A DNA stretch of 64,000 nucleotides from a virus, in the IMG/VR virus record IMGVR_UViG_3300045988_135095. One strand, written 5' to 3'. Every line of letters begins with the position of its first letter. Positions within the stretch are counted from its first letter, which is position 1. Under the pieces are notes generated by a model. It saw only the letters and a list, made by a program, of their open reading frames with translations. It was not told the DNA's origin and ran no database searches. Made by a program: the position numbers and the translations under genes. Positions 1 through 59,412 of this stretch are shown piece by piece.

Positions 1-54
1 GGAAAGCGTGTAACCGGCAAAACCGGTTCGGGGGTTCGAATCCCCCTCTTTCCG
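1..54 (+). tRNA. 3' portion of a class-II tRNA, probably tRNA-Ser (truncated by window); attL side of the prophage
   Basis: T-arm GGGGG/TTCGAAT/CCCCC at 30-46. Acceptor 3' strand TCTTTCC at 47-53, discriminator G54, no encoded CCA. Long variable arm AACCGG-CAAAA-CCGGTT at 12-28. G73 plus the long arm favour Ser. The window may open inside the anticodon loop (GGA-AA). Confidence 0.7.
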
Positions 55-125
55 CAGAAAACACTGAAAATTAGGTATTTCCAAAACATCGTATTTTATC
101 CAACTAAGTAGAATCCTGCACATTC

Positions 126-178
126 TTGCACATTTTTGCACATTTTTGCACAATTCTGCTTGCAAATAGCTTGCAAAT
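126..178 (+). repeat. Five tandem TTGCA(C/A)A(T/A)T repeats just upstream of the integrase ATG
   Basis: TTGCACATTT occurs at 126-135 and 136-145, TTGCACAATT at 146-155, and TTGCAAAT at 160-167 and 171-178. They could be int promoter/operator or arm-type sites. Confidence 0.5.
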
Positions 179-1436
179 GATAACAACGAAACTATACTTA
201 GATACAAGAGCGGTCAAGGACGGAGAGCCTGCACCGCTCAAAGTTGCCATTACGAAGAAGCGACAGGCAGCTTATATTCCTCTTGGTGTCAAATTGAAAA
301 AGGAACAATGGGATGTCAAGAAACAAAGAATAGTTGATGCACCAAACAAGCAGAGATTGGAAATATTTGTCAAGAACAAATTGGTAGAGATTGAAAATGC
401 TATATTGGAACTGCAGATGAAGGGAGAACTTACTAAACAGACTTCAACGCAGATAAAGAATAAGGTTGTGGCCTATCTAGACCCTGATGTTAAGAAGAAA
501 GACTTATTTATAAATAGGTATATAGAATATATGAATAGTCGTTCAGCACAAAGGACCAAGGAAATATATGCAACCACTTTGAAGAAGATGCGCGATTTCG
601 ATAGCAAGGTAGATACCTACGCTTTTGAAGATATCTCAAAGGATTGGCTGAAAAGGTTGGATGCCGAGTTGGTAAGACAAGGGTTAAAGAAGAACTCCAG
701 GAATATACATTTCAGAAACATACGTGCCGTTTTCAACGATGCTATCGATAATGAGATAACCAGCCATTATCCGATGAGAACATTCGATATAAATCCGGAA
801 CAGACAGAAAAACGTTCTCTTTCTGTAGATGAACTACGTACCTTATTTAATTATAATGTGCAGCCATGGCAGCAGAAGTACCTGGATTATTTCAAGCTTA
901 CATTCTTCTTGATCGGGATAAACCCTGCCGATATTCTTAATTGTACGGATGAGAATGTTGTAGACGGAAGATTACTGTATAGACGAAAGAAGACGGGAAG
1001 ACTGTATAGCATCAGACTGGAACCGGAAGCTATACAGATAATAAATAGGTATAGAGGAAAGACAAAGCTAGTCAATTTCTCAGAGAACATGAGAAACTAC
1101 AAGCAATTTGTGTGCAAGGCAAACAAGGGACTAAAGGCAATAGGCCCTGTCACTAAAGAAAGGAACGAGAAAAAGAAAGCTCATGATTTTCAGAAGGAAT
1201 ATCATACAAAGCATAATCCTCTGTTTGATCATATCTCTCTGTATTGGGCTAGGCATACGTGGGCAACAATAGCCTTCTCCATAGGAATACCCGAAGAAAT
1301 CATTGCCGAAGCATTGGGACATTCCCATGGAAACAGGACAACAGCTATCTATATTGACAAGAGTGTTGCCAATATAGACGCTGCAAATAGAAAAGTATTG
1401 GATTACGTTCTATATAAGGAGCAACCAAAGGACTAA
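177..1436 (+). CDS. int: Tyrosine recombinase / phage integrase (Bacteroidota type)
   Basis: The C-terminal catalytic region contains ARHTWAT and HSHGNRTTAIY (R..HxxR..Y). It lies next to the tRNA. The ATG is at 177; the track start at 126 is TTG. Confidence 0.9.
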   Translation: MITTKLYLDTRAVKDGEPAPLKVAITKKRQAAYIPLGVKLKKEQWDVKKQRIVDAPNKQRLEIFVKNKLVEIENAILELQMKGELTKQTSTQIKNKVVAYLDPDVKKKDLFINRYIEYMNSRSAQRTKEIYATTLKKMRDFDSKVDTYAFEDISKDWLKRLDAELVRQGLKKNSRNIHFRNIRAVFNDAIDNEITSHYPMRTFDINPEQTEKRSLSVDELRTLFNYNVQPWQQKYLDYFKLTFFLIGINPADILNCTDENVVDGRLLYRRKKTGRLYSIRLEPEAIQIINRYRGKTKLVNFSENMRNYKQFVCKANKGLKAIGPVTKERNEKKKAHDFQKEYHTKHNPLFDHISLYWARHTWATIAFSIGIPEEIIAEALGHSHGNRTTAIYIDKSVANIDAANRKVLDYVLYKEQPKD

Positions 1437-8819: not shown

Positions 8820-8880
8820 CTATTTGATGATTAAACAATAATGCTGCAAATATACAACAAAATATTTAATCATCAAATAG
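8820..8880 (-). promoter_or_regulatory. Late-type promoter of lysis cassette inside a 16-bp inverted repeat
   Basis: The inverted repeat is CTATTTGATGATTAAA (8820-8835) / TTTAATCATCAAATAG (8865-8880). The minus strand reads TTTG-N19-TATATTTGCAGC, with the -7 box at plus 8847-8854. Confidence 0.6.
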
Positions 8881-9417: not shown

Positions 9418-9969
9418 TTATAATCTAGAGATTAAACTTTGACAGCCCTTGCCTGAGAAATACTTATCGGCAAAACCATATACATAAAATATAATGGTCA
9501 TTACAAGTATTACAGCATTAGCTTCCACCATTTCGTTGGTGGTAAAAACATTCCAGTATACGATATGAATAGCATTTATCCCAAATAGGTAGATGATCAT
9601 CGGAATACGCCATCTGTAGCAGAGCCAAAAGAATCTGCTCGCAATTATAAGTACAAGCGGATGGATGTAAACGGAAAAATAGATAAATGCTGCCGATACC
9701 CAATTCTCCTTAAACCATACGCACATTTCTTTTTCATGAGACGCAAATGTTACCATGCATGCAATATGAAAAAGCATGATAAACAGAGGCATCACTTCAC
9801 AATAATACTTAAACCAAGTGAGTAGCTTTATGCTGTAGCCTCTACCTGCAAGGATAATGACGTTTATCATTTCGCTAACGTCCATGTCCTTAAACATTAC
9901 TCTTGACAACTGTACAACACCGACTGATTGAACTAACCGATGGACTTCATCTTCTTCCTCTTTAGTCAT
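9418..9969 (-). CDS. Multi-pass membrane protein (moron)
   Basis: 183 aa with 4-5 hydrophobic helices. Own TATCTTTG promoter. Confidence 0.6.
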   Translation of the reverse strand: MTKEEEDEVHRLVQSVGVVQLSRVMFKDMDVSEMINVIILAGRGYSIKLLTWFKYYCEVMPLFIMLFHIACMVTFASHEKEMCVWFKENWVSAAFIYFSVYIHPLVLIIASRFFWLCYRWRIPMIIYLFGINAIHIVYWNVFTTNEMVEANAVILVMTIIFYVYGFADKYFSGKGCQSLISRL

Positions 9970-26406: not shown

Positions 26407-27714
26407 TTACTCCTCAGCTTTAGCTGCGTTATCCTTGAACTCCTTCTTCTTTGTAGGAGGCAGCTCATTGTAGGCGTCAATAACCTCCTTGTCGCTGGCG
26501 TCACTAGGAAGTGTAGCACCAAGAGCGTTGAGAGTTGTGATAGCCTCCGGCTTCTTGTAGGTCACATCAGAGATTGTTACCTTAGCGTCCTCTGTATCTG
26601 CTTTCTCCTTTTCGGTATCAACCGAAACGTCTGGGTCTGCCAGCTTAGTATTAATCTGATAGATTGTATCAACGTCCTCGATGACAGGCAAGCAGTATGC
26701 CTGCACCGCAGTAGTCTCACGCAATGGATCAGTTGTTGAATACTGAGAGATAAGCTTGTAATCAATTTGCTGATAGGTTACACCTGCCACTCTGTTGGTT
26801 GCCTCTGCTACCTGACCGTAAACGAGGGCACCAATCATCTGTGAGCAGACACCGATAATCATATCGTTGTTCCAAGGCTTAACGCTCTTCTTCACACCAT
26901 CATGCTCCAAGCGGACAGTACGGTTGATGATGCGGAATGATACACCGGTCTCGTCCAAGAATGCCTCCTGGAATACGTTGGCAGTAGGAACCGGCAGCTT
27001 TGTGTTGGAGTCATAAGTCTGACCCTTATAGTTGGCAACAAGCTCACGAGCGTCCTGTGCCTTCTTCAGTTCGTCAAACTTAGCCTTACCAATCCAGAAG
27101 ATCAAGATGGTGTTGCCATCATTCGATGCTCGCTCGATACATTCCTTCAAGTCAGCAACGGTAACACCATTATTGACGTTGTTGATACCAAGCTGATTTT
27201 CTGGTAAGTACTGATACGTGATGCGAAGCATCTCATTTGGCTTGTCATCGTCACGAACAGCTACGTAGCCGTTAGAAAGACCATACAGAAGGGCGTACTC
27301 ATTACGCTCATCAACACCGACATTACAAGCTACCGGGTCCTGCGCCAACTTACGGCGAATCTCTGCTGTCTGACCGCCCTGTGCTTCCATGAGTCTGAGA
27401 GTGAGAATATCTGACTCCTTCAAGAATTTCTTCATACCGACTTTTGGCAGTTTGCCGTTGGCGGTTGAAATCTTGTCACGTGACTTCAAAGGAACCGGAG
27501 AATCCACTGCCACGTAGTCAGCAGCTACGTAAGAGGTATCAACTGTGTCGGCTTCCCATTTGTTGTCGGTAGAATAAACGCGGCGGAGAATGGATGTATC
27601 TTTGTGGAGATACGTCATCTCGTTCTTGCGCTTACCGTTAATCTTCTCAATCAATGTCTTCAGGATTGGGAAGAAACTCAAGATATACTTAAGAAATAAA
27701 GAACTCTGTTGCAT
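26407..27714 (-). CDS. Major capsid protein
   Basis: 435 aa following the scaffold and accessory genes. A strong SD AAGGAGGTGA (plus 27718-27727) lies 4 nt before the ATG. Confidence 0.75.
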   Translation of the reverse strand: MQQSSLFLKYILSFFPILKTLIEKINGKRKNEMTYLHKDTSILRRVYSTDNKWEADTVDTSYVAADYVAVDSPVPLKSRDKISTANGKLPKVGMKKFLKESDILTLRLMEAQGGQTAEIRRKLAQDPVACNVGVDERNEYALLYGLSNGYVAVRDDDKPNEMLRITYQYLPENQLGINNVNNGVTVADLKECIERASNDGNTILIFWIGKAKFDELKKAQDARELVANYKGQTYDSNTKLPVPTANVFQEAFLDETGVSFRIINRTVRLEHDGVKKSVKPWNNDMIIGVCSQMIGALVYGQVAEATNRVAGVTYQQIDYKLISQYSTTDPLRETTAVQAYCLPVIEDVDTIYQINTKLADPDVSVDTEKEKADTEDAKVTISDVTYKKPEAITTLNALGATLPSDASDKEVIDAYNELPPTKKKEFKDNAAKAEE

Positions 27715-27725
27715 AAATCACCTCC

Positions 27726-28118
27726 TTAACCGATTGCATCGTGTCCCCACTGAAGAGTAGGAACGGCTGTTTTCAAAGCTGCCTTAATCGTATCGACAGG
27801 ATAAGGGACAGCCTTATCATTAGCCTCACCTGCCGTCATAACACCTACATGAGGGGTATCTGCCGGAGCTGTTGTCATACAGATGCCAACATACTCGTGG
27901 CTCGCTGGCAAAGAAGCATAAGCCCCACCTGTTACAGGCATTGGCTTGTACTCGCCAGACGTAGTGTCACGAATGATAATGTGTCCGCACTGGATGAACT
28001 CTCCAGAGAAACCTGTCAAGTCAAGAACGACACCACCCATGATGCCATTCACGTAATTTCTGATGATTACAGACTCCTTGCCTGAATCATACGTTTCTGT
28101 CTTGCTTACGCCATACAT
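27726..28118 (-). CDS. Head accessory/decoration-position protein
   Basis: 130 aa between the scaffold and the capsid. The call rests on position only. Confidence 0.45.
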   Translation of the reverse strand: MYGVSKTETYDSGKESVIIRNYVNGIMGGVVLDLTGFSGEFIQCGHIIIRDTTSGEYKPMPVTGGAYASLPASHEYVGICMTTAPADTPHVGVMTAGEANDKAVPYPVDTIKAALKTAVPTLQWGHDAIG

Positions 28119-28137
28119 AACTTTTAAAATTTAAAGA

Positions 28138-28833
28138 TTACATTGTTTCGGCAAGCTCATCAATCTCATTGTCCTTGATAACCTCAACCTCATCCTTCTT
28201 AGGCTTTCTCTGAGCCGCAGGAGCACCAAGTTTTCCGAGACCTTCGTTAGCACGCTCTTGATCGATAGCTGCCAAGTCCTCCACAACACCATCGTAGAAA
28301 TCATCGAACTCAGATTCGTTCTCGAACTTCATCTTGTCGAAATTCTTCAAGATAGTCTTTCCGAACGTACCTTTGTCCTTAAGGAGTGCCTTCAGCTTAG
28401 AACGGCGGCCATCATTCTCACGCTCTGACTTCAAACCGAGGATTTCGGTCTGCAAGGCTTTGTTCTGAGTAATGAGTGCCTGCGCCCATGCTGGGACCTG
28501 CTCATCTTTCTCTCTCTTCTGTTTGCGGATTGGTTTCTTGTTGCCGGCAGGGTCATCATCATCGTCATCGACCTCGTCGTCATCCAAGTCTTGACTATCC
28601 TTAAAACTCTGGATAGTACGCTGCGCAGTCTTTTGCGCAATCTTAAGATAAGGAAGAACCGCATTGACCTGCTTTTCAATCTCTGCGTTTACATCCTCGT
28701 CTGAGGCTTCTTCATCGAGTTCTAAGTTATTGGCAACATCGGCAGCAATACCCTCTAACTCCTCTCTACTGAACCCCAACGCCTTTGATTTGGGTTTCAG
28801 AATAACTAAAACTTGCTTCGTTCTTTTTTTCAT
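28138..28833 (-). CDS. Scaffolding protein
   Basis: 231 aa from the ATG at 28833. Highly acidic (DDDEVDDDDDD), helical and K/E-rich. Sits upstream of the capsid gene. Confidence 0.65.
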   Translation of the reverse strand: MKKRTKQVLVILKPKSKALGFSREELEGIAADVANNLELDEEASDEDVNAEIEKQVNAVLPYLKIAQKTAQRTIQSFKDSQDLDDDEVDDDDDDPAGNKKPIRKQKREKDEQVPAWAQALITQNKALQTEILGLKSERENDGRRSKLKALLKDKGTFGKTILKNFDKMKFENESEFDDFYDGVVEDLAAIDQERANEGLGKLGAPAAQRKPKKDEVEVIKDNEIDELAETM

Positions 28834-28908
28834 TCTAACTAAATATTTAATTGAACAATAAAATTCAAGAAATATCCCAGTACGAAGCGATAGCAATAAG
28901 TAATGCTG

Positions 28909-28971
28909 CAAAATTATAAAAAAAGTATTTAGTCACCAAATATATTGCAAGGAAATATACTTAATGATTAA
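28909..28971 (-). promoter_or_regulatory. Late-type promoter of the head/tail operon
   Basis: The minus strand reads TTTG-N20-TAATTTTGCAGC, with the -7 box at plus 28909-28916. The palindrome TTAATGATTAA lies at 28961-28971. Confidence 0.55.
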
Positions 28972-28995
28972 ATACTTTATGGTTACATATAAATA

Positions 28996-29460
28996 TTAAT
29001 CTGGATAATTGAGCTTATCCGGTCCAGCTGTGGATAGATATACGGAGAACATATCACATAGCTCTTTTGCTCCTTTTAAGTCGTTGAGCTTGTAATTACC
29101 GCATTCCACTTCCGATGCACCTGGAATCGTCTTTGATAGCGAACAAGCCTTGAAGGCTTCTACTATCATTTCCTTTATGAGCTTTGAAGTCCACGTACCT
29201 TTAAGGATAAGATAGAAACCTGTAAGACATCCCATTGGTCCAAAATACAGAACGGAATTGCTAAGAGGACTATCATTTCGTAGGTAGTCCGCCATCAAAT
29301 GCTCTATTGTGTGCGCGACAGCAGGTGACATCATATCTTTGTTTGGCTTGCACACGCGAATATCGAATGTGGTAGCAGTCTCCATGCCCCATTTATCTAC
29401 TCTCGAAACATAAAGACCTGGCTTCAGTTTCGTATGATCAACTTTAAAACTTGGTATCAT
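28996..29460 (-). CDS. luxS: S-ribosylhomocysteine lyase (AI-2 synthase)
   Basis: 154 aa. Metal-ligand motif HTIEHL and GPMGCLTGFY are both present. The sequence aligns by eye with LuxS over its whole length. Confidence 0.9.
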   Translation of the reverse strand: MIPSFKVDHTKLKPGLYVSRVDKWGMETATTFDIRVCKPNKDMMSPAVAHTIEHLMADYLRNDSPLSNSVLYFGPMGCLTGFYLILKGTWTSKLIKEMIVEAFKACSLSKTIPGASEVECGNYKLNDLKGAKELCDMFSVYLSTAGPDKLNYPD

Positions 29461-30103
29461 TCTCTAATAATTTACAAACAACACTAAATGCCTTTTCGGC
29501 AAGACTATCCCAAAAACCTGCATACTGCTCGGTCTGGTTCGGCTCCAGGGAATTATCGCTAATAACTCGGATGGACGTAAAACCGATACCCTTCTTGTAG
29601 CATACCTGCGCGAGAGCAGCAGACTCCATGTCAATAGCACATACGTTATAAGAATTAGGAAGAAAATCCTTAATCGCCAATACCTGCTCTCTCGTGGTGA
29701 CAAACTTATCTCCCGTAGCTATAGTTCCTAGTCTGAATCTTTCATCCATATCAATCCAGGAGAAATCAGAAGGAAAGACTGCCGGCATACCTTGAACTTG
29801 TCCATTGGCATTCGGTTCGCCGCAATATACATCGTGGTAACAGTACGAATTACCTATTACGACATTACCTGGCTTTAAACCAGCAACGGCAGCACCTGCG
29901 CATCCTACCGAGATAACTCTTGTAACTTTGCTGGACGTATTCGACGAAAGAAATTCTGTCAAGCAAGATGCCGCATTAACCTTGCCAATACCAGACTTGA
30001 TTAAAGCTATGTTTTGAACATTTTTGTAGTCAAGCCAATTCTTTGCAATCCATTCGCTGATAAGGTCATATTCCTTATCCATAGCGGTAACTATGACAAT
30101 CAT
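29444..30103 (-). CDS. mtnN: 5'-methylthioadenosine/S-adenosylhomocysteine nucleosidase
   Basis: 219 aa. Contains N-terminal ..VTAMDKE.., ..SVGCAG.., ..IDMESAALAQV.. and ..IRVISDN.., which are the MTAN catalytic Glu/Asp motifs. It overlaps luxS by 17 nt. Confidence 0.9.
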   Translation of the reverse strand: MIVIVTAMDKEYDLISEWIAKNWLDYKNVQNIALIKSGIGKVNAASCLTEFLSSNTSSKVTRVISVGCAGAAVAGLKPGNVVIGNSYCYHDVYCGEPNANGQVQGMPAVFPSDFSWIDMDERFRLGTIATGDKFVTTREQVLAIKDFLPNSYNVCAIDMESAALAQVCYKKGIGFTSIRVISDNSLEPNQTEQYAGFWDSLAEKAFSVVCKLLENDTKF

Positions 30104-30399
30104 TGCGCACCTCCTTTCGTTAGCTTAAGCTTCTTACAACGATTGTAAATAGCGTTTTCGTCCACTCCAATCTTGGTAGCAATGGCTTTTACCGGGTACT
30201 TGCCATACATTCTGCGAATGATGAAATCCTCATCAGCTGTAAACACGTGGCTCTTGCTGATACCCATTTCCTTCATCTTTCGATGGATGGCCCAATAATT
30301 ACGATTGAGCTTCTTTGCAATCTCCGTTGTCGTCATCACCAAAGCATTAACCTTGATGAACTCAATCTCTTCTGCACTAAAATGTTTTCCTCTACTCAT
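30100..30399 (-). CDS. Tandem-HTH DNA-binding protein
   Basis: 99 aa made of two ~45-aa repeats: F(S/T)A(E/D)E..FI....(E/K)IA.K(L/I)....I..(K/R).K. Confidence 0.55.
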   Translation of the reverse strand: MSRGKHFSAEEIEFIKVNALVMTTTEIAKKLNRNYWAIHRKMKEMGISKSHVFTADEDFIIRRMYGKYPVKAIATKIGVDENAIYNRCKKLKLTKGGAQ

Positions 30400-30584
30400 T
30401 ATTTAATATTTGGGTTCATTAAGCCGCCCAAGGCTTTCCTTCTCTTTCTGTTATATCTTCTGTTTGCAGCAATCCTTTCAGCGTTCTCTTTACGATAGAC
30501 TTCCATTCTTGCCAATAAATGTTCCTTATGCTCCTGGTAGTACCTTCTATGGTATTCCCGGATATCCTCCTCACTTCTCGCCAT
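30399..30584 (-). CDS. Hypothetical basic protein
   Basis: 61-aa ORF whose stop abuts the next ATG. Confidence 0.5.
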   Translation of the reverse strand: MARSEEDIREYHRRYYQEHKEHLLARMEVYRKENAERIAANRRYNRKRRKALGGLMNPNIK

Positions 30585-30813
30585 GTACCTTGTCTTTTAT
30601 TAGCTCGTACAACGATGGACTAAGTGTACTCCAACGACCATTCTCATCTTTTACAAGATAGAATCCATCAGGAACATAGAACTCTCGATTTCTCAATCTA
30701 ACTATCAATGTTTGTTTAGTGCAGTCTCCGCTGACAGTCTTTACTAACTCTGAAACGTCCGGGCATTTCCATAATTCTTGGATGTTCTCGGAAGATACTT
30801 TAATTGCAATCAT
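30571..30813 (-). CDS. Hypothetical protein
   Basis: 80 aa from the ATG at 30813, 1 nt after the ASCH stop. The longer track ORF would overlap the ASCH gene by 128 nt. Confidence 0.45.
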   Translation of the reverse strand: MIAIKVSSENIQELWKCPDVSELVKTVSGDCTKQTLIVRLRNREFYVPDGFYLVKDENGRWSTLSPSLYELIKDKVHGEK

Positions 30814-30814
30814 A

Positions 30815-31165
30815 TCACTTAAACTTAATGATGAAAAACTCATGATCCAACCACTTGCCTGGGCAAAGACCTTTCTTCGGTTTACCGATGGTGATACTCT
30901 CAATCTCCTTCTCAATTCGTGGACTATACTTGCGGTAGCCATTGATGAAGAGGACGTGAGTATAAGGTTTATATTCCAGCTTGCCTATCACGCGACAATA
31001 ACCGCCAAACTCATCGAAAAGCACCTCACCGCTTTCTGCTTGTTGGTTTACCAGTCTGGAAGCCCAATATGATTTTATTTTCCGATATTCCTCAGTCTTC
31101 TCGCCAGTCACAATCTTATCAAACCATTCCTTGCTGACGGTGAGCACCAATACTTTCTTTTCCAT
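30815..31165 (-). CDS. ASCH domain protein
   Basis: 116 aa. The N-terminus KKVLVLTVSKEWFDKIVTGEKTEEYR is typical of ASCH/PUA-like proteins. Confidence 0.6.
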   Translation of the reverse strand: MEKKVLVLTVSKEWFDKIVTGEKTEEYRKIKSYWASRLVNQQAESGEVLFDEFGGYCRVIGKLEYKPYTHVLFINGYRKYSPRIEKEIESITIGKPKKGLCPGKWLDHEFFIIKFK

Positions 31166-31171
31166 ACGCTG

Positions 31172-31405
31172 CTACTTCTTTTTATTACAAGGACAACTAC
31201 TAGCGTGAATAATAACGCAAGCTCCATGTTCCCTGCCCACAAACAGGTAGTCATGCCCTTTCTTGGTGAATATTTTTATATTAAACTCTTCTTTTTCGTG
31301 TGGAGTTCCTAAGCTGAAAGAAACTCTAAAACCTATTACGCCTATAATGAAAATCAAAACGAGCAAACCGTATGACTTGGCTAAGTCTAAAATCTTTTTC
31401 TTCAT
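31172..31405 (-). CDS. Small membrane protein
   Basis: 77 aa with one TM helix (LLVLIFIIGVIGF). The junction upstream reads TAGCGTATG. Confidence 0.5.
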   Translation of the reverse strand: MKKKILDLAKSYGLLVLIFIIGVIGFRVSFSLGTPHEKEEFNIKIFTKKGHDYLFVGREHGACVIIHASSCPCNKKK

Positions 31406-31408
31406 ACG

Positions 31409-31792
31409 CTACTTCTCATCGAATTTGTTGCCAACGACTATGAATTTACCTAATGAAAGATAATAACCTAACGGTTTTTCATAAATCTTTCCATTAGCAT
31501 GTGTGAGGTAATACCCACTTAACTCTTCCGACCATACAATTTCTGATGGAATAAAAGGATAATTCTTGATAACATCATGTTCGTACAATTCATTGCCCTT
31601 ACCGTCTGCCAGTTCACAGGACTGGCAGACGGTAGAAGGGTCAACTTCATAAGTGATATTTCTGTTCAACATACTTTCTTCCTGACGATTTTCGATGATG
31701 TAGGTGTTACCACATTCGGCATAAAAGTAACCTTCTACCCACTTACCATTGTCAAGACGTTTTGCTTTAAACTTGATATTTCCTACTTTCAT
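31409..31792 (-). CDS. YopX-like protein
   Basis: 127 aa. Contains ..KFKAKRLDNGKWVEGYF.., ..VDPSTVCQ.. and ..GNELYEHDV..; the C-terminus is VGNKFDEK. Confidence 0.65.
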   Translation of the reverse strand: MKVGNIKFKAKRLDNGKWVEGYFYAECGNTYIIENRQEESMLNRNITYEVDPSTVCQSCELADGKGNELYEHDVIKNYPFIPSEIVWSEELSGYYLTHANGKIYEKPLGYYLSLGKFIVVGNKFDEK

Positions 31793-40036: not shown

Positions 40037-40179
40037 AATCTTTTATAATTTTAATTGGTTCAACTTATAAGGTAGGCTCTGAATAGTCAAAAGTACTACC
40101 TTTATCTATATGCAAAGGTACGAAAATTTTCTGATATATGCAAATATACCAATGATTATTTTAGTTAAAAATACTAAAA
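40037..40179 (-). promoter_or_regulatory. Promoter/leader cassette, copy 2
   Basis: The minus strand reads TATATTTGCATATA (plus 40141-40148) ...22 nt... TACCTTTGCATATAG (plus 40113-40120). This is followed by AAAGGTAGTACTTTT and the leader GTTGAACCAATTAAAATTATAAAAGATT-ATG. Confidence 0.7.
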
Positions 40180-40235: not shown

Positions 40236-41651
40236 ATGATAGATTTTAATGAACTTTTTAAAAGAAATGACGTTGGCAGCATCATAGGAGAGCTGAAACA
40301 ACGCGTGTTGGATATTCCACTTTGGAGTACCCTGTTATCTGAGTATGAGCCTATGCTACATGAAATCGTAAACGACCACGTTGGCAGACAGGACAGAACT
40401 CTTGATGACGGAATTGTAGAAAAGGCAGCTAGATTGCCTGTCGGATTGGAGAAGCTTCTTACACGAAGAATCTCTGAGTTCACAATGGCTATACCGGTCA
40501 AGCGTGTATATACGTATGATCAGGCTGACGAGGAACTGAAGACGATTGTGCGTGCCATCGAGAAAATCTACACCTGTGCACACATTGATGCCGTGAACAT
40601 GCACAGAGCAAAGTGCTATTACGCCTCTTGTCAGATGTTTACACTTTGGTACACGCAGAAGAAGCCTAACAAGCTCTACGGGTTCAACAGTCAGTACAAA
40701 CTGAAATGCAAGACATTCTCTCCAATGGACGGAGTTGACATCTATCCTTACTTTGATGAGTATGACGACTTGCTTGCTCTGTCATTCGAGTATAAGCGTA
40801 AGGTTACTGACACAGAGCACACCTTCTTCGAGACCTATACCGCAGACCATCATTACAAGTGGGACCTGTCTTCAGACGACGAAGAGTCCGGATGGAATTT
40901 GGTGGATGATAATGAGATTTCTATCGACAAGATTCCAGCCGTGTTCTGGTACCGGCACAAGCCATGCTGGGAAGGATTGAAACCTATCCGTGAGAATATC
41001 GAGTACACCATTTCCCGAAACAGCGATGTTGTGGCATACAATTCCGCTCCTGTCTTGAAGATTGCCGGTGCCATCGTTGGAATGGAGCGAAAGGGAGAGA
41101 GCAAGAGGGTGTATAGAGTCAGCGAAGACGGCGATGTTAGCTACGTGTCTTGGCAGCAGGCTATCGAGGCTCTTAAGTATCACGTTGACACTCTCGTCAA
41201 GCTTTTCTTCATGCAGTCTCAGATGCCGGACATCAGTTTCGAGAATATGAAGAGCCTTGGCAATATCGGCTATGATTCAAGAAAGACACTCCTCATGGAT
41301 GCCCATCTTAAGATAGGAGAGGAGACTGGTGCCTGGATTGAAGGCTTCGAGAGAGAGGCCAACGTCATAAAGGCGTTCCTTTCCAAGATGAACACGAAAT
41401 GGGCAGCTAGAATGGATGAGATTACTGTAGAGCACATTATCACTCCATTCATCCAGGAGGATGAGAATACCCAGATTGACAAATGGCTTAAGGCTAACGG
41501 CAACAAGCCTCTCGTCAGCCAGAAGGAATCTATTCAGCGTGCCGGTCTTTCCGATGATCCTGACAAGACTTTCAACGAGATTCAAGGAGAAGAGGAAGTA
41601 GAGGCCACAAGAACAGCAGCTTCTATGCCTAACTTATTCTCGGAGGAATAG
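40236..41651 (+). CDS. Portal protein (SPP1 gp6-like)
   Basis: 471 aa followed by a MuF-like gene. Overall resemblance to SPP1-type portals, judged by eye. Confidence 0.8.
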   Translation: MIDFNELFKRNDVGSIIGELKQRVLDIPLWSTLLSEYEPMLHEIVNDHVGRQDRTLDDGIVEKAARLPVGLEKLLTRRISEFTMAIPVKRVYTYDQADEELKTIVRAIEKIYTCAHIDAVNMHRAKCYYASCQMFTLWYTQKKPNKLYGFNSQYKLKCKTFSPMDGVDIYPYFDEYDDLLALSFEYKRKVTDTEHTFFETYTADHHYKWDLSSDDEESGWNLVDDNEISIDKIPAVFWYRHKPCWEGLKPIRENIEYTISRNSDVVAYNSAPVLKIAGAIVGMERKGESKRVYRVSEDGDVSYVSWQQAIEALKYHVDTLVKLFFMQSQMPDISFENMKSLGNIGYDSRKTLLMDAHLKIGEETGAWIEGFEREANVIKAFLSKMNTKWAARMDEITVEHIITPFIQEDENTQIDKWLKANGNKPLVSQKESIQRAGLSDDPDKTFNEIQGEEEVEATRTAASMPNLFSEE

Positions 41652-44277: not shown

Positions 44278-46026
44278 TTACGAATTTAATTTGTTGGAAA
44301 TCAGAGAGTTAGATTTGAGGTAAGCGATAAACTTATCAAGCATTCTTGACGTTCGCTCTCTAATATCCGTTTCTGTAAAATCTGTCAACGTCTGTGACAG
44401 CATTCGTAATTCGTGTATCTTAGTTCCAATCCTCTCGCCTGTGGATTTGAACTCACCATTATAATACTTAATCTTGTCAGCAAATCTGTAATCGGATGCC
44501 CGAATATTAACTCTTCGCTCCAATACCGATTTGTTTCCCAACATTTCAAGAACCTCGTCACTCGACAATCCACCTTCCTTGACTTGTCTGTTCCTTGGGA
44601 AGATGTGCTCAATGTCATATGTTGCGTCAAGAGGAAGCAATTCCTGGCTATCGAAAGAGAATGCCCACCACACAATCATCGACTTCGTAATCGCACGAGT
44701 GTTTGAAAAACTGAAGTTGGTAAATTGCGAACGGAACAATTCCTCTTGGAATAGATAGTTCTCGAAAGCAATCTCTTTGTTCTCTATGATATTCACCATC
44801 TCATTGAATACCGGTGCTCGCAAGGCTGTTATTCCTGGGTTGCTGATAGCATATGCCCAAATAAAGCCTATCAAACGATTCAAGAACAAATAGAACTTCT
44901 CGTTGTCTAGCATATTCTCAGCATTCTTATAGTGCATGAAATATACTGATACGATATATGTCCATAAACTGTTAGGCGCATAATTCAATACAAACAAGCG
45001 CTTTAGTACATCCACGGAAAAACGATCTTCGTTCTGAGAATATACATCTTTCCAGAAGTCCGCAAGCAAGACTAGATTCTCTAAAGTCTGCTCTCGTCGA
45101 AGTAGAACATATCCATCTTTCTCATAGAACTTACGAAGTCCTTCTGTCATAGAACTACGATTAGTCAGCAATGCCCTCTCGTAGTACATATAGCGTGTAA
45201 ACAACTCATCCAAAGGTGTTCCACGATATGGGTGGAATATTTTTGTAACGAGTTCGTCAAGCTCTTTCCATGTAGTGATAAACTCTTCCTTCTTTCCGAT
45301 GGATGAGTAGAACTTATAGAGCTGTGCCTTGAAGATGTCTGAGTCAGACAATGGCTTACCTCTATCATTAAGCGTCGAGAATATCCTAAGAGCAGTATCT
45401 TGCGATTCTGCCTCTATTGGAAGTAGCACACAGTTATTGAGTATGCGAGCTGGATATAATGCAAAGAAAGAAGGATATTCTTCAATGAATTTTCCTATCT
45501 TGTCTTGAAAGTATCTGAAGTTGGCAGCATACCGGCTTTTCCCTTCTGATGTTCCTTTCCGGAGTATATCCATAAACTCTTCCTTGTCGTTATCAGTTGC
45601 AACCTCCGAATTTATCTTCAAGTCGTTTGGATCATACTCTCCGAACTCATTTGCTCTCCAAATGCACTTTTCTATGTCCTCTCGCATCTTGATAGAACGA
45701 TTGTCTTTCATGTGCTCCAGGCGATTGTAGAAAGCTCGCAGTAAGAGAAGCAAGGTCGTAAGACGCTGCTGACCGTCAATGATTTCAAGTTTCCCTTCGT
45801 CATTACGGAATGTTACTATAGGACCGAGAAAGTAACTCTCTGAAGAATCGAAGCTGTCGCAGTTGTTATTCGGGAATGAAAAGGAAAATAAGTCTTCCCA
45901 TAAGACCTTACATTCGTCTTCTCCCCAAGCATACGGACGCTGATAATCAGGAATCAAGAACGTAGCTTTTTTATCTTGAAAAAGATACTTTACGTTCTTT
46001 TGATCTACTATAAGCTTTGATGACAT
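44278..46026 (-). CDS. GmrSD-family type IV (modification-dependent) restriction endonuclease (DUF262 + DUF1524)
   Basis: 582 aa. N-terminal ..IPDYQRPYAW.. and ..IIDGQQRLTTL.. (DUF262). C-terminal His-Me finger ..YDIEHIFPRN..LGNKSVLERRVN.. (DUF1524). Confidence 0.85.
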   Translation of the reverse strand: MSSKLIVDQKNVKYLFQDKKATFLIPDYQRPYAWGEDECKVLWEDLFSFSFPNNNCDSFDSSESYFLGPIVTFRNDEGKLEIIDGQQRLTTLLLLLRAFYNRLEHMKDNRSIKMREDIEKCIWRANEFGEYDPNDLKINSEVATDNDKEEFMDILRKGTSEGKSRYAANFRYFQDKIGKFIEEYPSFFALYPARILNNCVLLPIEAESQDTALRIFSTLNDRGKPLSDSDIFKAQLYKFYSSIGKKEEFITTWKELDELVTKIFHPYRGTPLDELFTRYMYYERALLTNRSSMTEGLRKFYEKDGYVLLRREQTLENLVLLADFWKDVYSQNEDRFSVDVLKRLFVLNYAPNSLWTYIVSVYFMHYKNAENMLDNEKFYLFLNRLIGFIWAYAISNPGITALRAPVFNEMVNIIENKEIAFENYLFQEELFRSQFTNFSFSNTRAITKSMIVWWAFSFDSQELLPLDATYDIEHIFPRNRQVKEGGLSSDEVLEMLGNKSVLERRVNIRASDYRFADKIKYYNGEFKSTGERIGTKIHELRMLSQTLTDFTETDIRERTSRMLDKFIAYLKSNSLISNKLNS

Positions 46027-49652: not shown

Positions 49653-51131
49653 TTACAAGAAACCGCCACGTCGGAGCTGTGCATCGGTAGCATTGTTAAG
49701 CCACTCCTCGCACTTCTCTATGATGCCCGTACAAGCGTCCGGCGCATCATCGTGGGCGTTATATCCTTCCTTTCTGTAGGATTTCATATCGTGGGCGAAC
49801 TCCGGCCACAACTGTTCCCAATTAGAAGGGAAGACTAGTTTATTGTTTACCTCGCTGGAGCGAGTGAATATTCTAATCTGTTTGTTCTTCGATTGCGTGA
49901 ACGTTACGAACTGGGTAATTCTGTTTCCGTGTTCCCTTGTTATGCGCTCGACATTGCGGGCGTAAGAGCGTCCACCATTGTTACTTTCAACGAAACACAC
50001 GTCTGTCTGATTGCGCTTAACCATATTGGCTTGCGCTGGTTCCGTGTATTCCATCGGTCGCTTAGTGTATAGAACATCGGTAACATAGTAGCCGTCATCG
50101 TGTGCATCGAAGCATATAGAGCAAAGGAAGTCGAAACCGGTATCTGCCGAGTCTGTGTAGTTGCCAATCATTCTTGCATACCTTCTGTCCGGCAGCTCAT
50201 CGTATGTTCTGAAGGCATGGTACATAAGACCTTCCATAGGGGTAGGGTTCTGCATGTACTGTGTCTCAAATACGAACTCGCTGGCATGCTTGATTTTATA
50301 CAGCTCCTCCAGCGTATGCTTCCACGGCCACAAGGCTCGCTCCTTTCCGTCCTCGTCTGTCTGTATTACCGGGAGGGAAACAACCTTCCACTCATTCGGC
50401 TCAATCTCTTGAAGGTAACCGCACAAGTCGTGCTCGTGCAACCTCTGCATGACGATGATAATTGGCGTATGACGTGAGTTTACACGGTTACGGATGGTTG
50501 TCTCGAAACGTCTGTTGATAGACTCTCTGACGTTATCGGACAAAGCATCGTCCGGTCGTAAAGGGTCATCGATAACTATGGCTCCCGAAAAGTGACCGGG
50601 GTTGAACGTAGCCATGAACTTATCCATGTTCTTTATGTCTTCTTCGGTCCAGTCTGGCTGACCTGCACCAAAACCTGTGATCTGACCCAAGGTAGATGTA
50701 GCATACTCACCACCACCTGCCGTTGTGCTCCATTTTGATCTTGTGTTATCGTTCTTTCTGATTTTGACATTCGGAAATAGTGTTTGAAAATATGTAGAAG
50801 TTATCGTGTCCTTGACTGCCATTGAGTTGTCCTGGACGAGACTTCCGGAATAAGATATATGAAGAAACTTTGAAGCAGGGTTCAGCGCAAGACCATATGC
50901 GATAAACATCTGTGAACACAAGAGTGTCTTTCCATAACGAGGGCTGATGTTGATAATCAGCTTGTTAGTCTTTCCCCTTATCACATCCATGAGCGCATCA
51001 CATATAATCCTGTGATGTTCGCCTATTACATACTCACGTCGAGCAGTATAGGCGAACATCTTAGTAGTGAATTGCAGCAGGGACGATGCCACTAACTGCT
51101 TATGAAGAAAACGTTGTTTCTCAAAGTCCAT
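49653..51131 (-). CDS. terL: Terminase large subunit
   Basis: 492 aa. Walker A ..SPRYGKT.., Walker B ..AIVIDDP.., and a C-terminal nuclease-type region. Confidence 0.9.
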   Translation of the reverse strand: MDFEKQRFLHKQLVASSLLQFTTKMFAYTARREYVIGEHHRIICDALMDVIRGKTNKLIINISPRYGKTLLCSQMFIAYGLALNPASKFLHISYSGSLVQDNSMAVKDTITSTYFQTLFPNVKIRKNDNTRSKWSTTAGGGEYATSTLGQITGFGAGQPDWTEEDIKNMDKFMATFNPGHFSGAIVIDDPLRPDDALSDNVRESINRRFETTIRNRVNSRHTPIIIVMQRLHEHDLCGYLQEIEPNEWKVVSLPVIQTDEDGKERALWPWKHTLEELYKIKHASEFVFETQYMQNPTPMEGLMYHAFRTYDELPDRRYARMIGNYTDSADTGFDFLCSICFDAHDDGYYVTDVLYTKRPMEYTEPAQANMVKRNQTDVCFVESNNGGRSYARNVERITREHGNRITQFVTFTQSKNKQIRIFTRSSEVNNKLVFPSNWEQLWPEFAHDMKSYRKEGYNAHDDAPDACTGIIEKCEEWLNNATDAQLRRGGFL

Positions 51132-51657
51132 TTATCTTCTGTAATTCTTTAATATCATCCAAGGACAGCTTAGGGAACTTGAAGTCCTCGCCATCCTTGC
51201 CGGTTACTTCTTGAATATGCTTATCTGCCAATCCGTTGAGCCTTGCAACAATACTGGAATCAAACTGATGAAGCATGGCGCCATCAATTTGCTGAGCCAT
51301 CACGACATTCTCAATCTGTGTTATCACCTGCTCAAAGCCTGGTCTCTTAAGATTACCTCTCTTGAAATCCGCCCATTTCTGAACGATGCCACAGAAAGCA
51401 CAAAATCCGACAAGGGTATAGGCTCTTCTGAAAACCCTTACCTCTTGTCTCATGGAATTTGTGGATTTGCCGCTGCCGCCTGCAATGGAGTTGCTACCAG
51501 TCTTTTGCTGCCAAGGGTCATTTTCAACATCATCACAGTAAGCTACAAACTTATCCCATAATTCCTGAGAAGACTTAATCTTGTATGGTCTTCCAACAGG
51601 ATTGGGGATTCTATGTACGAAAGACTTTACTTTCGGCTGTGATGATTCATCTGTCAT
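51121..51657 (-). CDS. terS: Terminase small subunit
   Basis: 178 aa overlapping terL. The N-terminal segment ..GRPYKIKSSQELWDKFVAYCD.. is typical of small terminases. Confidence 0.65.
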   Translation of the reverse strand: MTDESSQPKVKSFVHRIPNPVGRPYKIKSSQELWDKFVAYCDDVENDPWQQKTGSNSIAGGSGKSTNSMRQEVRVFRRAYTLVGFCAFCGIVQKWADFKRGNLKRPGFEQVITQIENVVMAQQIDGAMLHQFDSSIVARLNGLADKHIQEVTGKDGEDFKFPKLSLDDIKELQKINGL

Positions 51658-52271
51658 GGTTTCTTAACTTTTACTAGTTTACCGCAAGCGGAACAATTAT
51701 ACTCATAATACTCTGAAGGCTTGACCTGGATATTCTCCTCAACGCCCTTCATTTCCTCCTTGAACTTCTGGTCCTTCTGGGCTTCCGTTACGACCTTCTT
51801 AGCCGTATGGTTAGTCTCAGCCTTGGAAGGTGCGGCCGCAGGTTTCTGTTCCTTTGGCTTAGCGTTGAGTCCAAGCATACCGGCAATGCTCTCATCGAAA
51901 GCAAACTGAATGCTGTTAGGATCACCGAGATAGGAGAGCTCCTTGCGAAGCTTCTTCTCGTTCCAAGTGGCAAACTCGGACGTCTTGTCATCAGCGATTC
52001 TATACTGCTTAATCTGCTCATCAGTCAGATAGTCAACACGGATGCATGGAACCTTATCCATTCCCAATGCCTTAGCAGCCTTATACACACCGTTACCGGT
52101 TACAATCACGTTGTTCTTATCAACGGAAATAGGCTGAGTGATGCCGAAATCCTTGATGGACTGCATGATTGCCTGTACTGCCGTCTCGTCGGTCTTGTGC
52201 GAACCGTCATGAGGCACGATACTGTCAATAGGTAACTCAATTACCTTGTCATTAATCTTAATCTCTTCCAT
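51654..52271 (-). CDS. ParB/Srx-fold protein 4 (degenerate GxxR box) with C-terminal CxxC
   Basis: 205 aa. ..VIVTGNGVYKAAKALG.. occupies the place of the DGxxR box. The C-terminus is ..YNCSACGKLVKV.. The ATGA overlaps terS. Confidence 0.65.
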   Translation of the reverse strand: MEEIKINDKVIELPIDSIVPHDGSHKTDETAVQAIMQSIKDFGITQPISVDKNNVIVTGNGVYKAAKALGMDKVPCIRVDYLTDEQIKQYRIADDKTSEFATWNEKKLRKELSYLGDPNSIQFAFDESIAGMLGLNAKPKEQKPAAAPSKAETNHTAKKVVTEAQKDQKFKEEMKGVEENIQVKPSEYYEYNCSACGKLVKVKKP

Positions 52272-52276
52272 ACCTG

Positions 52277-52912
52277 TTAATCCTCAATTTCTATTGTTTC
52301 CATATTTCCGCAATATGGGCAAACGACCTTCATATAATGTGAACCGTCCTCGCGCTCTTTGAGAACGAACAAATCCTTGGCAGGGTCCTCCTCCTCATCA
52401 TCTGAAGAAGCTTCCTCGCTTTCGCCAGCCTCTTCATTGGATGGAGCCTCGAAGTTCTCCTCATCAACCTGAGAATAGTCATCCTGGAAGCCACCATACT
52501 CTTCTGCCTGCTGATTGATGCTGTCGAGGGAGAAGTTGAGCATCTGGTTGATATCCTCAAAGAAGAATGCCTGCATATCGGTAGGAACCTCCATGTTGCG
52601 CAATTCCTCCAAAAGCTGGTCTTCATCAAAGGAAGATTTCTCTGCCAGCTTGTTATCGAGGATGCGGTACTTCTTTGCCATTTCGTCGTCCATATCCGAG
52701 TAAACGACAGGAACGAACTCCATACCCAACTGGTAAGCGGCCACGTATCTTGTGTGACCGGCAATGATTACACCTGCCTTATCAACGAGGATAGGCTTAA
52801 CGAATCCAAAACGCTTGATACTCTCCTTCGTAGGCTCAACCGCATTCGTGTTGTCACGAGGGTTGTCATAGTAAGGAAAGATTTCACTGAGCTTAACTGA
52901 CTTTACTTTCAT
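52277..52912 (-). CDS. ParB/Srx-fold protein 3 with acidic linker and C-terminal zinc ribbon
   Basis: 211 aa. ..VIIAGHTRYVAAYQLG.., an acidic tract SEEASSDDEEED, and a C-terminal CPYCG. Confidence 0.7.
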   Translation of the reverse strand: MKVKSVKLSEIFPYYDNPRDNTNAVEPTKESIKRFGFVKPILVDKAGVIIAGHTRYVAAYQLGMEFVPVVYSDMDDEMAKKYRILDNKLAEKSSFDEDQLLEELRNMEVPTDMQAFFFEDINQMLNFSLDSINQQAEEYGGFQDDYSQVDEENFEAPSNEEAGESEEASSDDEEEDPAKDLFVLKEREDGSHYMKVVCPYCGNMETIEIED

Positions 52913-55905: not shown

Positions 55906-56565
55906 TTATTTAGTTACTGTCCATTCTCCACCTCGCTTGGCAATCTTGCTGATGGCTACTGCCAAACGGTTTCTGTTCATATCGCTACCATAGAAAACCT
56001 TACCTGCGTCATAGGCTGCTTGGGCAACAAGTCCTTGACCCATGAAGAAGTCTGTGATAGAACTGAACGGAACATCCTTACAAATCTTGAACACCGCATC
56101 CCATTCATCCATACCCTGGAGCCCCCAGTCTTCTGCCTGCTTGGTGCCTTGGATAATCCAGCACTTGCAATCTGGCTTATGATAATAGGTGTTCTCGTAG
56201 ATTTTTACATGAGGAAACAGCGATTCTACCATAGGAACCAATTGGTTCTTGTTTCGATAGAAGCACTCGACGAATAGTCTGTCCGGGTTAATCTGCTCGA
56301 TGCACCTCTTGATGTGGGCAACGAACTCGTCAAAATTATCAACCGGGCATTGCTTCTCCGCCTTAGTATAATACGCTTTGAGGACGCCTTTACTTCCTGC
56401 CGGGTCGATGAATACGCAATCGGCATTCTTCGAAAACTCCGGAAGCCCCAAAGTAATATCGGCAATGGTAATCTTGCTACCATTGCCTAAACTGTAAATC
56501 TCGCCTTCTGTGATGGGGTATTTATCAATACTGCCATCATAACGCAAACCTTTCTGTGATGTCAT
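55906..56565 (-). CDS. Beta-class N6/N4-DNA-methyltransferase-fold protein with DPPY replaced by DPAG
   Basis: 219 aa from the ATG at 56565. The C-terminal SAM motif ..DFFMGQGLVAQAAYDAGKVFYGSDMNRNRLAVAISKI.. is present. The N-terminal motif IV position reads ..VFIDPAGSKG.. Confidence 0.6.
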   Translation of the reverse strand: MTSQKGLRYDGSIDKYPITEGEIYSLGNGSKITIADITLGLPEFSKNADCVFIDPAGSKGVLKAYYTKAEKQCPVDNFDEFVAHIKRCIEQINPDRLFVECFYRNKNQLVPMVESLFPHVKIYENTYYHKPDCKCWIIQGTKQAEDWGLQGMDEWDAVFKICKDVPFSSITDFFMGQGLVAQAAYDAGKVFYGSDMNRNRLAVAISKIAKRGGEWTVTK

Positions 56566-57104
56566 ACGCAATTTACTATTAAATAATTGTGATACTCTGA
56601 TACGTTTTCTTCACCAAAAAGACTGCACAAGACCTTCTTTGAATAGAAAAAATGTCTGAACTCCACATCACACTTCTCATAAGTGACCGGATGATATTTC
56701 TCCTTGTAGAACATCAAGAACTTGCGAGCCTTGCACTGCGATATTGCCAGAACGGCATAACGGGAAAGATAAGATGGGGAACCGAACAATGCTACGATAT
56801 TCTCGAAATTCCTGCAATCTAAACTCTTTCCGTCGAAAGGCTCACATACAACCCTATCCTTATAGGCTGGGTATTTGTTAGTGAACTGCTCCAACATTCC
56901 TTTACTAGGATCAATTCCTAGATATTCCTGTGGGTCGATTTTTGCAATCTCTGTCAGCAAGCCGGTACCACATCCGATGTCTAGGATTGAACCGCTGAGA
57001 GGTGGGAGCATTTGCCCCACCTCACGGTTCTCAACGAGACTCATTTCATCACGAAACAAAGTGTCGTACTTACTTGCTATTTTATCATACTGGGAATAAT
57101 TCAT
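56562..57104 (-). CDS. Class I SAM-dependent methyltransferase (small)
   Basis: 180 aa. Motif I ..ILDIGCGTGLL.. and post-I ..YLGIDPS.. Confidence 0.8.
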   Translation of the reverse strand: MNYSQYDKIASKYDTLFRDEMSLVENREVGQMLPPLSGSILDIGCGTGLLTEIAKIDPQEYLGIDPSKGMLEQFTNKYPAYKDRVVCEPFDGKSLDCRNFENIVALFGSPSYLSRYAVLAISQCKARKFLMFYKEKYHPVTYEKCDVEFRHFFYSKKVLCSLFGEENVSEYHNYLIVNCV

Positions 57105-59402: not shown

Positions 59403-59412
59403 AACTCACATA

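Follow-up and report, generated by a model that had tools for sequence, protein, structure and literature searches.

Why should a temperate phage of a gut bacterium carry two metabolic enzymes between a regulatory gene and its scaffold and capsid genes? The question is raised by a viral DNA stretch of 64,000 nucleotides, IMG/VR record IMGVR_UViG_3300045988_135095 (hereafter the window), in which mtnN (pfs; 29444..30103, minus strand) and luxS (28996..29460, minus strand) are neighbours. The former encodes a 5'-methylthioadenosine/S-adenosylhomocysteine nucleosidase (MTAN) of 219 aa and the latter an S-ribosylhomocysteine lyase (LuxS) of 154 aa. The window is an integrated prophage of a temperate siphovirus-like phage of the Segatella copri complex, seated at a tRNA-Ser site and represented by more than 130 IMG/VR contigs. 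The reading that we consider reasonably probable is that the pair belongs to a lytic-cycle cassette sustaining the activated methyl cycle, in other words the recycling of S-adenosylmethionine (SAM), with 4,5-dihydroxy-2,3-pentanedione (DPD) and the derived autoinducer-2 (AI-2) as a by-product.

Both open reading frames (ORFs) start with ATG in the ORF listing. A first, sequence-only reading had described them as full length, with catalytic motifs intact and a 17-nt overlap; coordinates, profiles and alignments agree with that description, and the overlap lies at 29444-29460, the luxS start falling inside the 3' end of mtnN. The LuxS translation contains HTIEHL and GPMGCLTGFY, matches Pfam PF02664 (E=3.6e-48, 163.6 bits where 27 is the cut-off) and, in NCBIfam, the equivalog NF002604 (165.8 bits, above the cut-off of 158), and aligns to the Bacillus subtilis LuxS structures (PDB 1j98/1ie0; best 1.7e-24). 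Residues H50, E53, H54, C78 and C120 are invariant in a 27-sequence alignment (A1). Among them, H50 and H54 (HTIEH) together with C120 (ECGN) are the predicted metal ligands and align with the same motifs in 1j98/1ie0, while C78 (GPMGC) and E53 (HTIEH) form the predicted catalytic acid/base pair. In B. subtilis LuxS we take the metal ligands to be His54, His58 and Cys126 and the acid/base pair to be Cys84 and Glu57. A lyase activity yielding DPD is the putative function of the phage protein.

The MTAN translation contains AMDKEY, IDMESAA and RVISDN. It matches Pfam PF01048 (2.4e-31, 109 bits; cut-off 25) and TIGR01704 (81.7 bits, above the cut-off of 73.8) and reaches 115 bits on the stricter NF004079, under its cut-off of 169, a shortfall that reflects sequence divergence and a shorter N-terminal hairpin. 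At E<=1e-8 the protein matches 35 solved MTAN or futalosine-hydrolase sequences (best 1e-21). The AlphaFold2 model (pLDDT 93.0, pTM 0.91) predicts an MTAN fold, and its 50 best Foldseek matches in the PDB are all MTANs or futalosine hydrolases, with E-values down to 2e-19 and query-normalised TM scores of 0.71-0.83. The catalytic positions M8, E11, F134, M159, E160, R179, S182 and D183 are conserved in two alignments (A2/A3), where E11, E160, D183, M8, F134, M159 and R179 are invariant or almost so, and the C-terminal motifs are seen likewise in alignments to PDB 4qez, 6po4 and 1zos. These residues correspond to Met9, Glu12, Phe151, Met173, Glu174, Arg193, Ser196 and Asp197 of the E. coli enzyme. 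The E. coli Ser76 of the ribose/water site is not kept, the phage protein having Cys68 (VGCAGA); since the position is Cys or Val in cellular Bacteroidales MTANs (A2) as well, this is a trait of the subfamily and no sign of inactivation. On the substrate range (S-adenosylhomocysteine (SAH) as against 5'-methylthioadenosine, 5'-deoxyadenosine or futalosine) the evidence is one of context, mtnN overlapping and lying just upstream of luxS as in Bacteroidota operons, and SAH is the putative substrate. An identity as a purine-nucleoside-phosphorylase-fold anti-phage effector (ATP nucleosidase type; PADLOC 'PN-superfamily') was rejected on a negligible match (18.9 bits, E=1e-4, 60 residues).

Relatives of the window LuxS are encoded in 130 IMG/VR stretches (tblastn, E<=1e-3), the best 80 of which were analysed. 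In these best 80 of 130, LuxS is 94-100% identical to that of the window, and all 80 keep the order helix-turn-helix (HTH) regulator, MTAN, LuxS, scaffold and major capsid protein. Pooled Nei-Gojobori dN/dS over 40-57 distinct alleles is 0.037 for mtnN, 0.075 for luxS and 0.094 for the capsid gene, values to be taken as indicative given the phylogenetic non-independence of the allele pairs. Their low level argues that both mtnN and luxS are maintained by selection. With viral hallmark genes on both sides, conservation in related viruses and purifying selection, the pair qualifies as viral auxiliary metabolic genes (AMGs).

All family relatives were found via LuxS, and members without LuxS would escape this sampling. 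Within that scope, LuxS stands at the cassette position in every relative examined while its neighbours vary, and its identity to the window declines in step with that of the capsid across syntenic relatives: 100% LuxS identity goes with about 97% for the capsid, 73% with 82-86%, 62-64% with about 78%, and 54% with 70-76%. Four arrangements occur. The window shares HTH-MTAN-LuxS with L001-4, the L177 group, L221, L264 and others; HTH-LuxS with neither MTAN nor MetK is found in L005-8, L188, L251, the L172/L219/L223/L235 group and others; MetK-HTH-LuxS is carried by L243 and L289-291, and MetK-HTH-MTAN-LuxS by L292-293. In the distant members L289-L293 and L243, MetK (SAM synthetase) is full length, with 396-398 aa, and lies directly upstream of HTH-[MTAN]-LuxS. 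MTAN never occurs without LuxS in the phage family, and LuxS often occurs without MTAN.

The MTAN gene behaves as a replaceable module, judging from its alleles. These are 97-100%, about 88% or 64% identical to that of the window in genomes where the HTH protein is at least 86%, LuxS at least 94% and the capsid at least 91% identical, all three being mostly at 96% or more. Where LuxS is 85% identical, the MTAN allele stands at 57%; in genomes whose LuxS is 76% identical, MTAN is at 87-95%. The allele swaps and the re-assortment of LuxS and MTAN (the window compared with L001-L088, L177, L221 and L264) indicate recombination at gene boundaries. With MetK, MTAN and LuxS, one phage locus brings together three activated-methyl-cycle enzymes, which argues that the cycle itself is the selected function; as far as gene content can tell, the pattern of the locus favours support of SAM and the methyl cycle over AI-2 signalling.

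The local anatomy suggests how the cassette would be expressed. A 99-aa HTH regulator gene (30100..30399, minus strand; PHROG 323 'transcriptional regulator', 3.4e-21) overlaps mtnN via ATGA and precedes the cassette in all family members examined, and a strong Shine-Dalgarno motif, AAGGAGGTG, stands ahead of the mtnN start. The ATGA overlap, this motif and the 17-nt overlap of mtnN with luxS together suggest that the HTH gene, mtnN and luxS are translationally coupled in that order. A gap of about 160 nt separates luxS from the downstream scaffold gene, whose most likely start codon is the ATG at 28833, in agreement with orthologues of 229-231 aa. Within this gap lies a promoter-like motif of the Bacteroidetes type (28905..28944, minus strand; -33 TTTG / -7 TAnnTTTG, ending TTTGCAGC), identified by motif match only; motifs of the same type with this ending are also found near 8877 and 43337. 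The TTTG/TAnnTTTG search was used in place of a sigma-70 scan, which, with an intrinsic-terminator scan of 28000-31500, gave counts no better than shuffles, as expected for a Bacteroidota host.

Upstream, the nearest candidate is a double promoter-like element at 40081..40144 (minus strand; a motif match from a pattern scan), with its paired motif at 40144/40116. It is one of six minus-strand copies of a repeat of about 60 nt (63818, 58119, 49538, 44263, 40144 and 3433) with the sequence TTTGCATATATCAGAAAATTTTCGTACCTTTGCATATAGATAAAAGGTAGTACTTTTG, inside which two Bacteroidetes-type -33/-7 motifs overlap; in most copies (63818, 49538, 40144 and 3433) a leader ending TTGAACCAATTAA follows. The six-copy element probably marks early/middle promoters or operators of the phage. 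The pattern scan found no other paired -33/-7 motif on the same strand between 40116 and 28940, and a same-strand block of about 11 kb probably begins at this element and ends with mtnN-luxS. The sequence-only reading had placed the pair last in a long early/middle block, just ahead of the promoter of the head genes; with the promoter-like motif at 28905..28944 this placement appears reasonable.

From these features a mechanism can be proposed. MTAN would cleave SAH irreversibly to adenine and S-ribosylhomocysteine, and probably 5'-methylthioadenosine (MTA) and 5'-deoxyadenosine as well. LuxS would convert S-ribosylhomocysteine to homocysteine and DPD, and the host would turn homocysteine into methionine and methionine into SAM, the last step being performed by the phage MetK in some relatives. 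The distal, coupled position of mtnN-luxS in a long same-strand block points to lytic expression rather than to a lysogenic-conversion moron. The phage would gain a steady SAM supply, low SAH, regenerated methionine and salvaged adenine while replicating in a host of the S. copri complex, and DPD/AI-2 would arise as an unavoidable by-product. We infer the timing of expression, the activity of both enzymes and which SAM-dependent process would benefit. The sequence-only reading had proposed more narrowly that the pair relieves SAH inhibition of phage methyltransferases. SAH/SAM metabolism is indeed the best-supported role, to which MetK at the locus adds weight, but relief from SAH alone is too narrow, since LuxS cannot act on SAH and phages with LuxS only exist. 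What the family seems to need throughout is regeneration of homocysteine, and hence of methionine and SAM, with MTAN and MetK as optional reinforcements.

Several points weigh against a cassette for SAM recycling. The mtnN-luxS genes on Segatella chromosomes are reported to be core genes, which makes the phage copy redundant on paper (10.64898/2026.07.27.740950). The relatives with LuxS only mean that SAH removal is not an invariant step, and the operon and promoter assignments derive from motif matches only. The process that consumes SAM is a further difficulty. The sequence-only reading had counted three phage methyltransferase-fold enzymes; one is confirmed in the window, at 56562..57104 (minus strand), by Methyltransf_25/12/11 at 1e-7, PHROG 4752 and PDB matches to class I methyltransferases (1.5e-5), and it is the candidate SAM consumer. 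The genes at 55163-55897, 55906-56571 and 57085-57930 were rejected as further methyltransferases, since neither Pfam nor PHROGs nor the PDB gave a match of that kind. No Pfam DNA-methyltransferase family and no radical-SAM enzyme was found in the window by the same searches and the precomputed Pfam hits. The PADLOC mad2 profile matches 56562-57104 over its positions 294-338 and the downstream 55906-56571 (minus strand) over positions 342-441, each weakly (E about 1e-4); the two genes may form a split or two-subunit methyltransferase, with 55906-56571, a faint continuation of the same profile, as the possible C-terminal half.

The origin of the pair bears on the alternatives. In a cellular scan with one genome for each of 185,579 species, the best 80 LuxS loci were analysed; none of the matches listed has a LuxS more than 53% identical to that of the phage, and no homologue of 42 queried window-phage proteins was found in these 80 loci. 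The phage proteins are divergent from their cellular counterparts. LuxS is about 46% identical to those of all phyla, roughly equidistant from each, and MTAN scores a mean of 127 bits against Bacteroidota MTANs (about 36% identity) and 77 bits otherwise. The order mtnN>luxS on one strand is common to Bacteroidota chromosomes and the phage, whereas Bacillota have luxS>mtnN. In a rough neighbour-joining (NJ) tree, built without bootstraps and open to long-branch effects, the family LuxS forms one clade nested in a wider IMG/VR viral LuxS group that lies mostly apart from the clades of cellular Bacteroidota and Bacillota. With just 36-46% identity between the phage proteins and Bacteroidota homologues, a recent capture from the host was rejected. 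Most economically, these comparisons are read as the capture long ago of a cassette of Bacteroidota type, which then resided in phages for a long time and recombined among them. Another, separate subgroup of cellular LuxS was also observed in Bacteroidaceae/Prevotellaceae metagenome-assembled genomes (L097, L098, L101, L116, L121 and L134), several of them from ruminant gut. These proteins match residues 1-132 only of the phage LuxS, at 46-50% identity, lack an adjacent MTAN, unlike the usual mtnN>luxS operon, and branch away from the main Bacteroidota clade in the NJ tree.

The first alternative is that the pair scavenges sulfur and nucleotides: MTAN would supply adenine for phage DNA and clear MTA and 5'-deoxyadenosine, and LuxS would provide homocysteine for cysteine or sulfide. 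We regard this as unlikely, although mtnN and luxS have been placed among the AMGs that funnel organosulfur to homocysteine and sulfide (Kieft et al. 2021, 10.1101/2021.01.05.425418), MTAN occurs without LuxS in other viral contigs, and the window contains a gene resembling 3'-phosphoadenosine-5'-phosphosulfate (PAPS) reductase (53537-54730). Against it stands the one-sided pattern described above, in which MTAN of this family is never seen without LuxS but LuxS is often seen without MTAN. The third recruit of the locus, MetK, uses methionine to make SAM and is neither a transsulfuration nor a nucleotide-salvage enzyme, and the PAPS-reductase-like protein, with its DUF3440/ParB-neighbour architecture and weak BrxP/DndC-type matches, is probably not involved in sulfate assimilation.

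A second alternative, related to the manipulation of quorum signalling raised in the sequence-only reading, is that DPD/AI-2 itself is selected and steers the lysis-lysogeny decision of the phage, neighbouring lysogens or other gut bacteria in favour of the host. The DPD-forming enzyme is the sole component found at the locus in all members examined, and the separation of viral LuxS, including this family, from the sampled cellular clades in the rough tree suggests long viral retention. A preprint states that LuxS-containing Bacteroidales make AI-2 (Kennedy et al. 2026, 10.64898/2026.07.27.740950), and AI-2 is reported to influence the lysogeny-lysis switch of bacteriophage T1 (PMC6737242). 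Even so, we consider signal manipulation a rather poor prospect, and no positive evidence for it emerged. No periplasmic-binding domain of the LuxP/LsrB type and no dCACHE receptor domain was seen in the scanned ORFs or precomputed Pfam hits, many small ORFs having no detectable domain. The host genus has mtnN-luxS and already makes AI-2, and with luxS-carrying Bacteroidales amounting to 5-33% of gut bacteria, by the figure given in the preprint, the share added by a phage would be little informative; the tested Bacteroidaceae, moreover, did not respond to AI-2 (10.64898/2026.07.27.740950). The pair also lies within a long lytic-type block with no promoter motif of its own, and the co-location of MetK in relatives points to metabolism. 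For a signalling role, neither a receptor nor a private signal nor a responsive host is in evidence.

Two further, non-exclusive possibilities were given together only a slim chance: that AI-2/DPD is selected as a phage-driven public signal in Prevotella-rich guts, or that temperate Bacteroidales phages with mtnN>luxS ferried replacements of sahH across Bacteroidota. According to the preprint, mtnN-luxS has taken the place of sahH repeatedly within Bacteroidota ('numerous independent replacements'), and phages go unmentioned in it (10.64898/2026.07.27.740950). That the pair is host chromosomal DNA without a phage role, through misassembly, a prophage boundary or picked-up cargo, is next to impossible: the window is an integrated prophage and a luxS-mtnN scaffold in the GenBank phage collection (MT835487) looks bacterial, but the pair is flanked by a phage regulator and scaffold/capsid genes some 29 kb into the element. 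Its position is the same in divergent relatives and in over 80 viral contigs that are independent, a synteny that effectively refutes the idea. No LuxS close to that of the phage is among the cellular matches listed, and the pair is under strong purifying selection.

For a viral gene pair of this kind, published precedents exist, and the novelty implied by the sequence-only reading was overstated. Kieft et al. (2021, 10.1101/2021.01.05.425418) reported metK, mtnN and luxS as AMGs of viruses of the human gut and found them to be under purifying selection; these three genes, taken together with cysD, cysH and dcm, account for about 97% of such AMGs in human samples. The same study names 'luxS and mtnN' as connected AMGs on single viral genomes, and an entry of its Table S1 gives a rumen viral contig with mtnN (gene 133) and luxS (gene 134) adjacent, along with metK and dcm. 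Prevotella spp. count among the inferred hosts of the gut viruses that carry metK, luxS and mtnN. Phage LuxS is also listed in a 2026 digester study (PMC13644194). The kind of element has thus been known since 2021. The AMG set of Kieft et al. (metK, mtnN, luxS, ahcY and dcm) comprises the same enzymes in uncultivated human-gut viruses, but that work is a catalogue framed on sulfide production and does not describe the S. copri prophage family, nor the features of this family, namely the fixed HTH-[MetK]-[MTAN]-LuxS locus, the constant LuxS and the replacement of MTAN alleles. New here are the link to a prevalent prophage family of the S. copri complex, the modular locus, fixed in place and with LuxS throughout, the replacement of MTAN alleles and the MetK variants.

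The search for a cultured or characterised phage with the pair returned none from PHROGs and the GenBank phage collection, as the sequence-only reading had surmised, and PHROGs has no family for MTAN or LuxS. Surveying phage databases for such pairs was productive in IMG/VR, where the family was found, but the GenBank phage collection yielded unverified scaffolds or host-like records. The luxS-mtnN scaffold L288 (MT835487.1 31533-45997, 'UNVERIFIED: Bacteriophage sp.', fecal) was rejected as a phage pair, its flanks looking bacterial by eye: the ORFs on either side are similar to a glycoside hydrolase of family 1 and to a membrane protein of the AzlC type. A virome assembly has probably taken in bacterial DNA at this point, which calls for care in AMG surveys. 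MT835691, another UNVERIFIED fecal scaffold, has ordinary cellular-type proteins of 234 and 163 aa and was not used. Nor were the Staphylococcus, Listeria and Enterococcus 'phage' records, in which luxS and mtnN are on different records at about 30% identity.

The closest cellular counterpart is the chromosomal mtnN-luxS operon of gut Bacteroidales, which has the same two enzymes in the same order on one strand; mtnN-luxS has been reported as core genes of Segatella genomes (Kennedy et al. 2026 preprint, 10.64898/2026.07.27.740950). By subtype, the MTAN of the phage belongs with Bacteroidota, having Cys/Val for the E. coli Ser76 and the motif YHDV(Y/W)CG...GQVQG. Apart from the distances of about 46% (LuxS) and 36% (MTAN) and the grouping of the phage LuxS with viral LuxS, the phage genes differ from this operon in lying within a phage block, overlapping each other and standing away from yfhO.

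Phages carrying quorum-sensing genes offer a looser parallel. Cases cited in PMC7790227 are Clostridioides phage phiCDHM1 with its agr genes, LuxR-type receptors encoded by phages, and phage VP882 with VqmA. The likeness is a phage gene product that gives a bacterial autoinducer precursor, but those systems have a dedicated signal-processing or receptor part, whereas no receptor was found in the window phage, whose LuxS is a core metabolic enzyme with the signal as a by-product.

The pool of SAM is a known target of phages. The SAM lyase of T3 is a phage enzyme that destroys SAM to disable restriction. It likewise manipulates the host SAM pool, in the opposite direction to the window cassette, which would regenerate SAM precursors and remove SAH.

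Segatella copri can dominate non-Westernised gut communities, and the prophage is common, as the 130 IMG/VR stretches show. An active cassette would mean that induced lysogens of a very abundant gut lineage have their SAM, SAH and homocysteine metabolism rewired and give off additional DPD/AI-2. Being modular, the locus is a natural experiment, with LuxS alone, with MTAN, with MetK or with both, on which step of the methyl cycle limits phage replication. In surveys of luxS and AI-2 in Bacteroidales, divergent prophage copies may be counted as chromosomal genes or be missed beside them. These findings refine rather than overturn the present picture, viral mtnN, luxS and metK AMGs being already published.

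The layout of the window bears out the earlier statement that the pair is carried by a phage, with structural genes on both sides and an integrase beside a tRNA. Scaffold, capsid, tail and lysis genes span 1.4-28.9 kb, the portal and head-morphogenesis genes lie at 40.2-43.2 kb, and TerS and TerL at 49.6-51.7 kb; profile matches place the major capsid gene at 26407-27714, the portal gene at 40236-41651 and TerL at 49653-51131. A tyrosine integrase, a marker of temperate phages and prophages, is encoded at 177..1436 (plus strand; PHROG 1 integrase, 8e-28), and the 3' part of a tRNA gene, on the attachment-site side, was read from the sequence at 1..57 (plus strand). The tRNA scan of the window gave no match, the tRNA at its left end being truncated. 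In a 124-kb metagenome contig (L285), an identical integrase adjoins a complete tRNA-Ser(GGA) and ordinary bacterial Segatella-like genes; this tRNA, at 9791-9879 of the contig, is the site equivalent to window positions 1-57. Since the window starts within a tRNA gene and its counterpart is tRNA-Ser(GGA) beside S. copri-like host genes, the window is the left part of an integrated prophage. IspH, which flanks the prophage in this contig, shares 98% identity with a protein named Segatella copri and 91% with another named 'uncultured Prevotella sp.'

Other traits of the window are in line with this host. The nearest cultured relatives of its TerL are phages of Bacteroides fragilis (49% identity), a Shine-Dalgarno motif is missing from most genes, whose leaders are A/T-rich, and the promoter-like motifs are of the Bacteroidetes type (-33 TTTG / -7 TAnnTTTG). 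A Bacteroidales host fits the TerL relatives, the missing Shine-Dalgarno motifs, the promoter motif type and genes like PcfJ and PcfK. The PcfJ-like and PcfK-like genes, typical of Bacteroides conjugative transposons, lie in the phage early region at 58131-59847 (minus strand).

Two further genes of the window were observed. A type IV restriction-like gene of the GmrSD family (DUF262/DUF1524; 44278-46026, minus strand), with PADLOC matches to HEC-06, Orf5 and SspE-like profiles up to 9e-39, probably serves in defence against other phages. The PAPS-reductase/DUF3440 protein at 53537-54730 is IbrA-like, matches BrxP and DndC weakly in its N-terminal part, and is surrounded by four separate ParB_N-domain proteins (51654-52271, 52277-52912, 52909-53571 and 54727-55182). 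It looks more like part of a DNA-modification or partition-type module, and AMG surveys would likely score it as 'cysH'.

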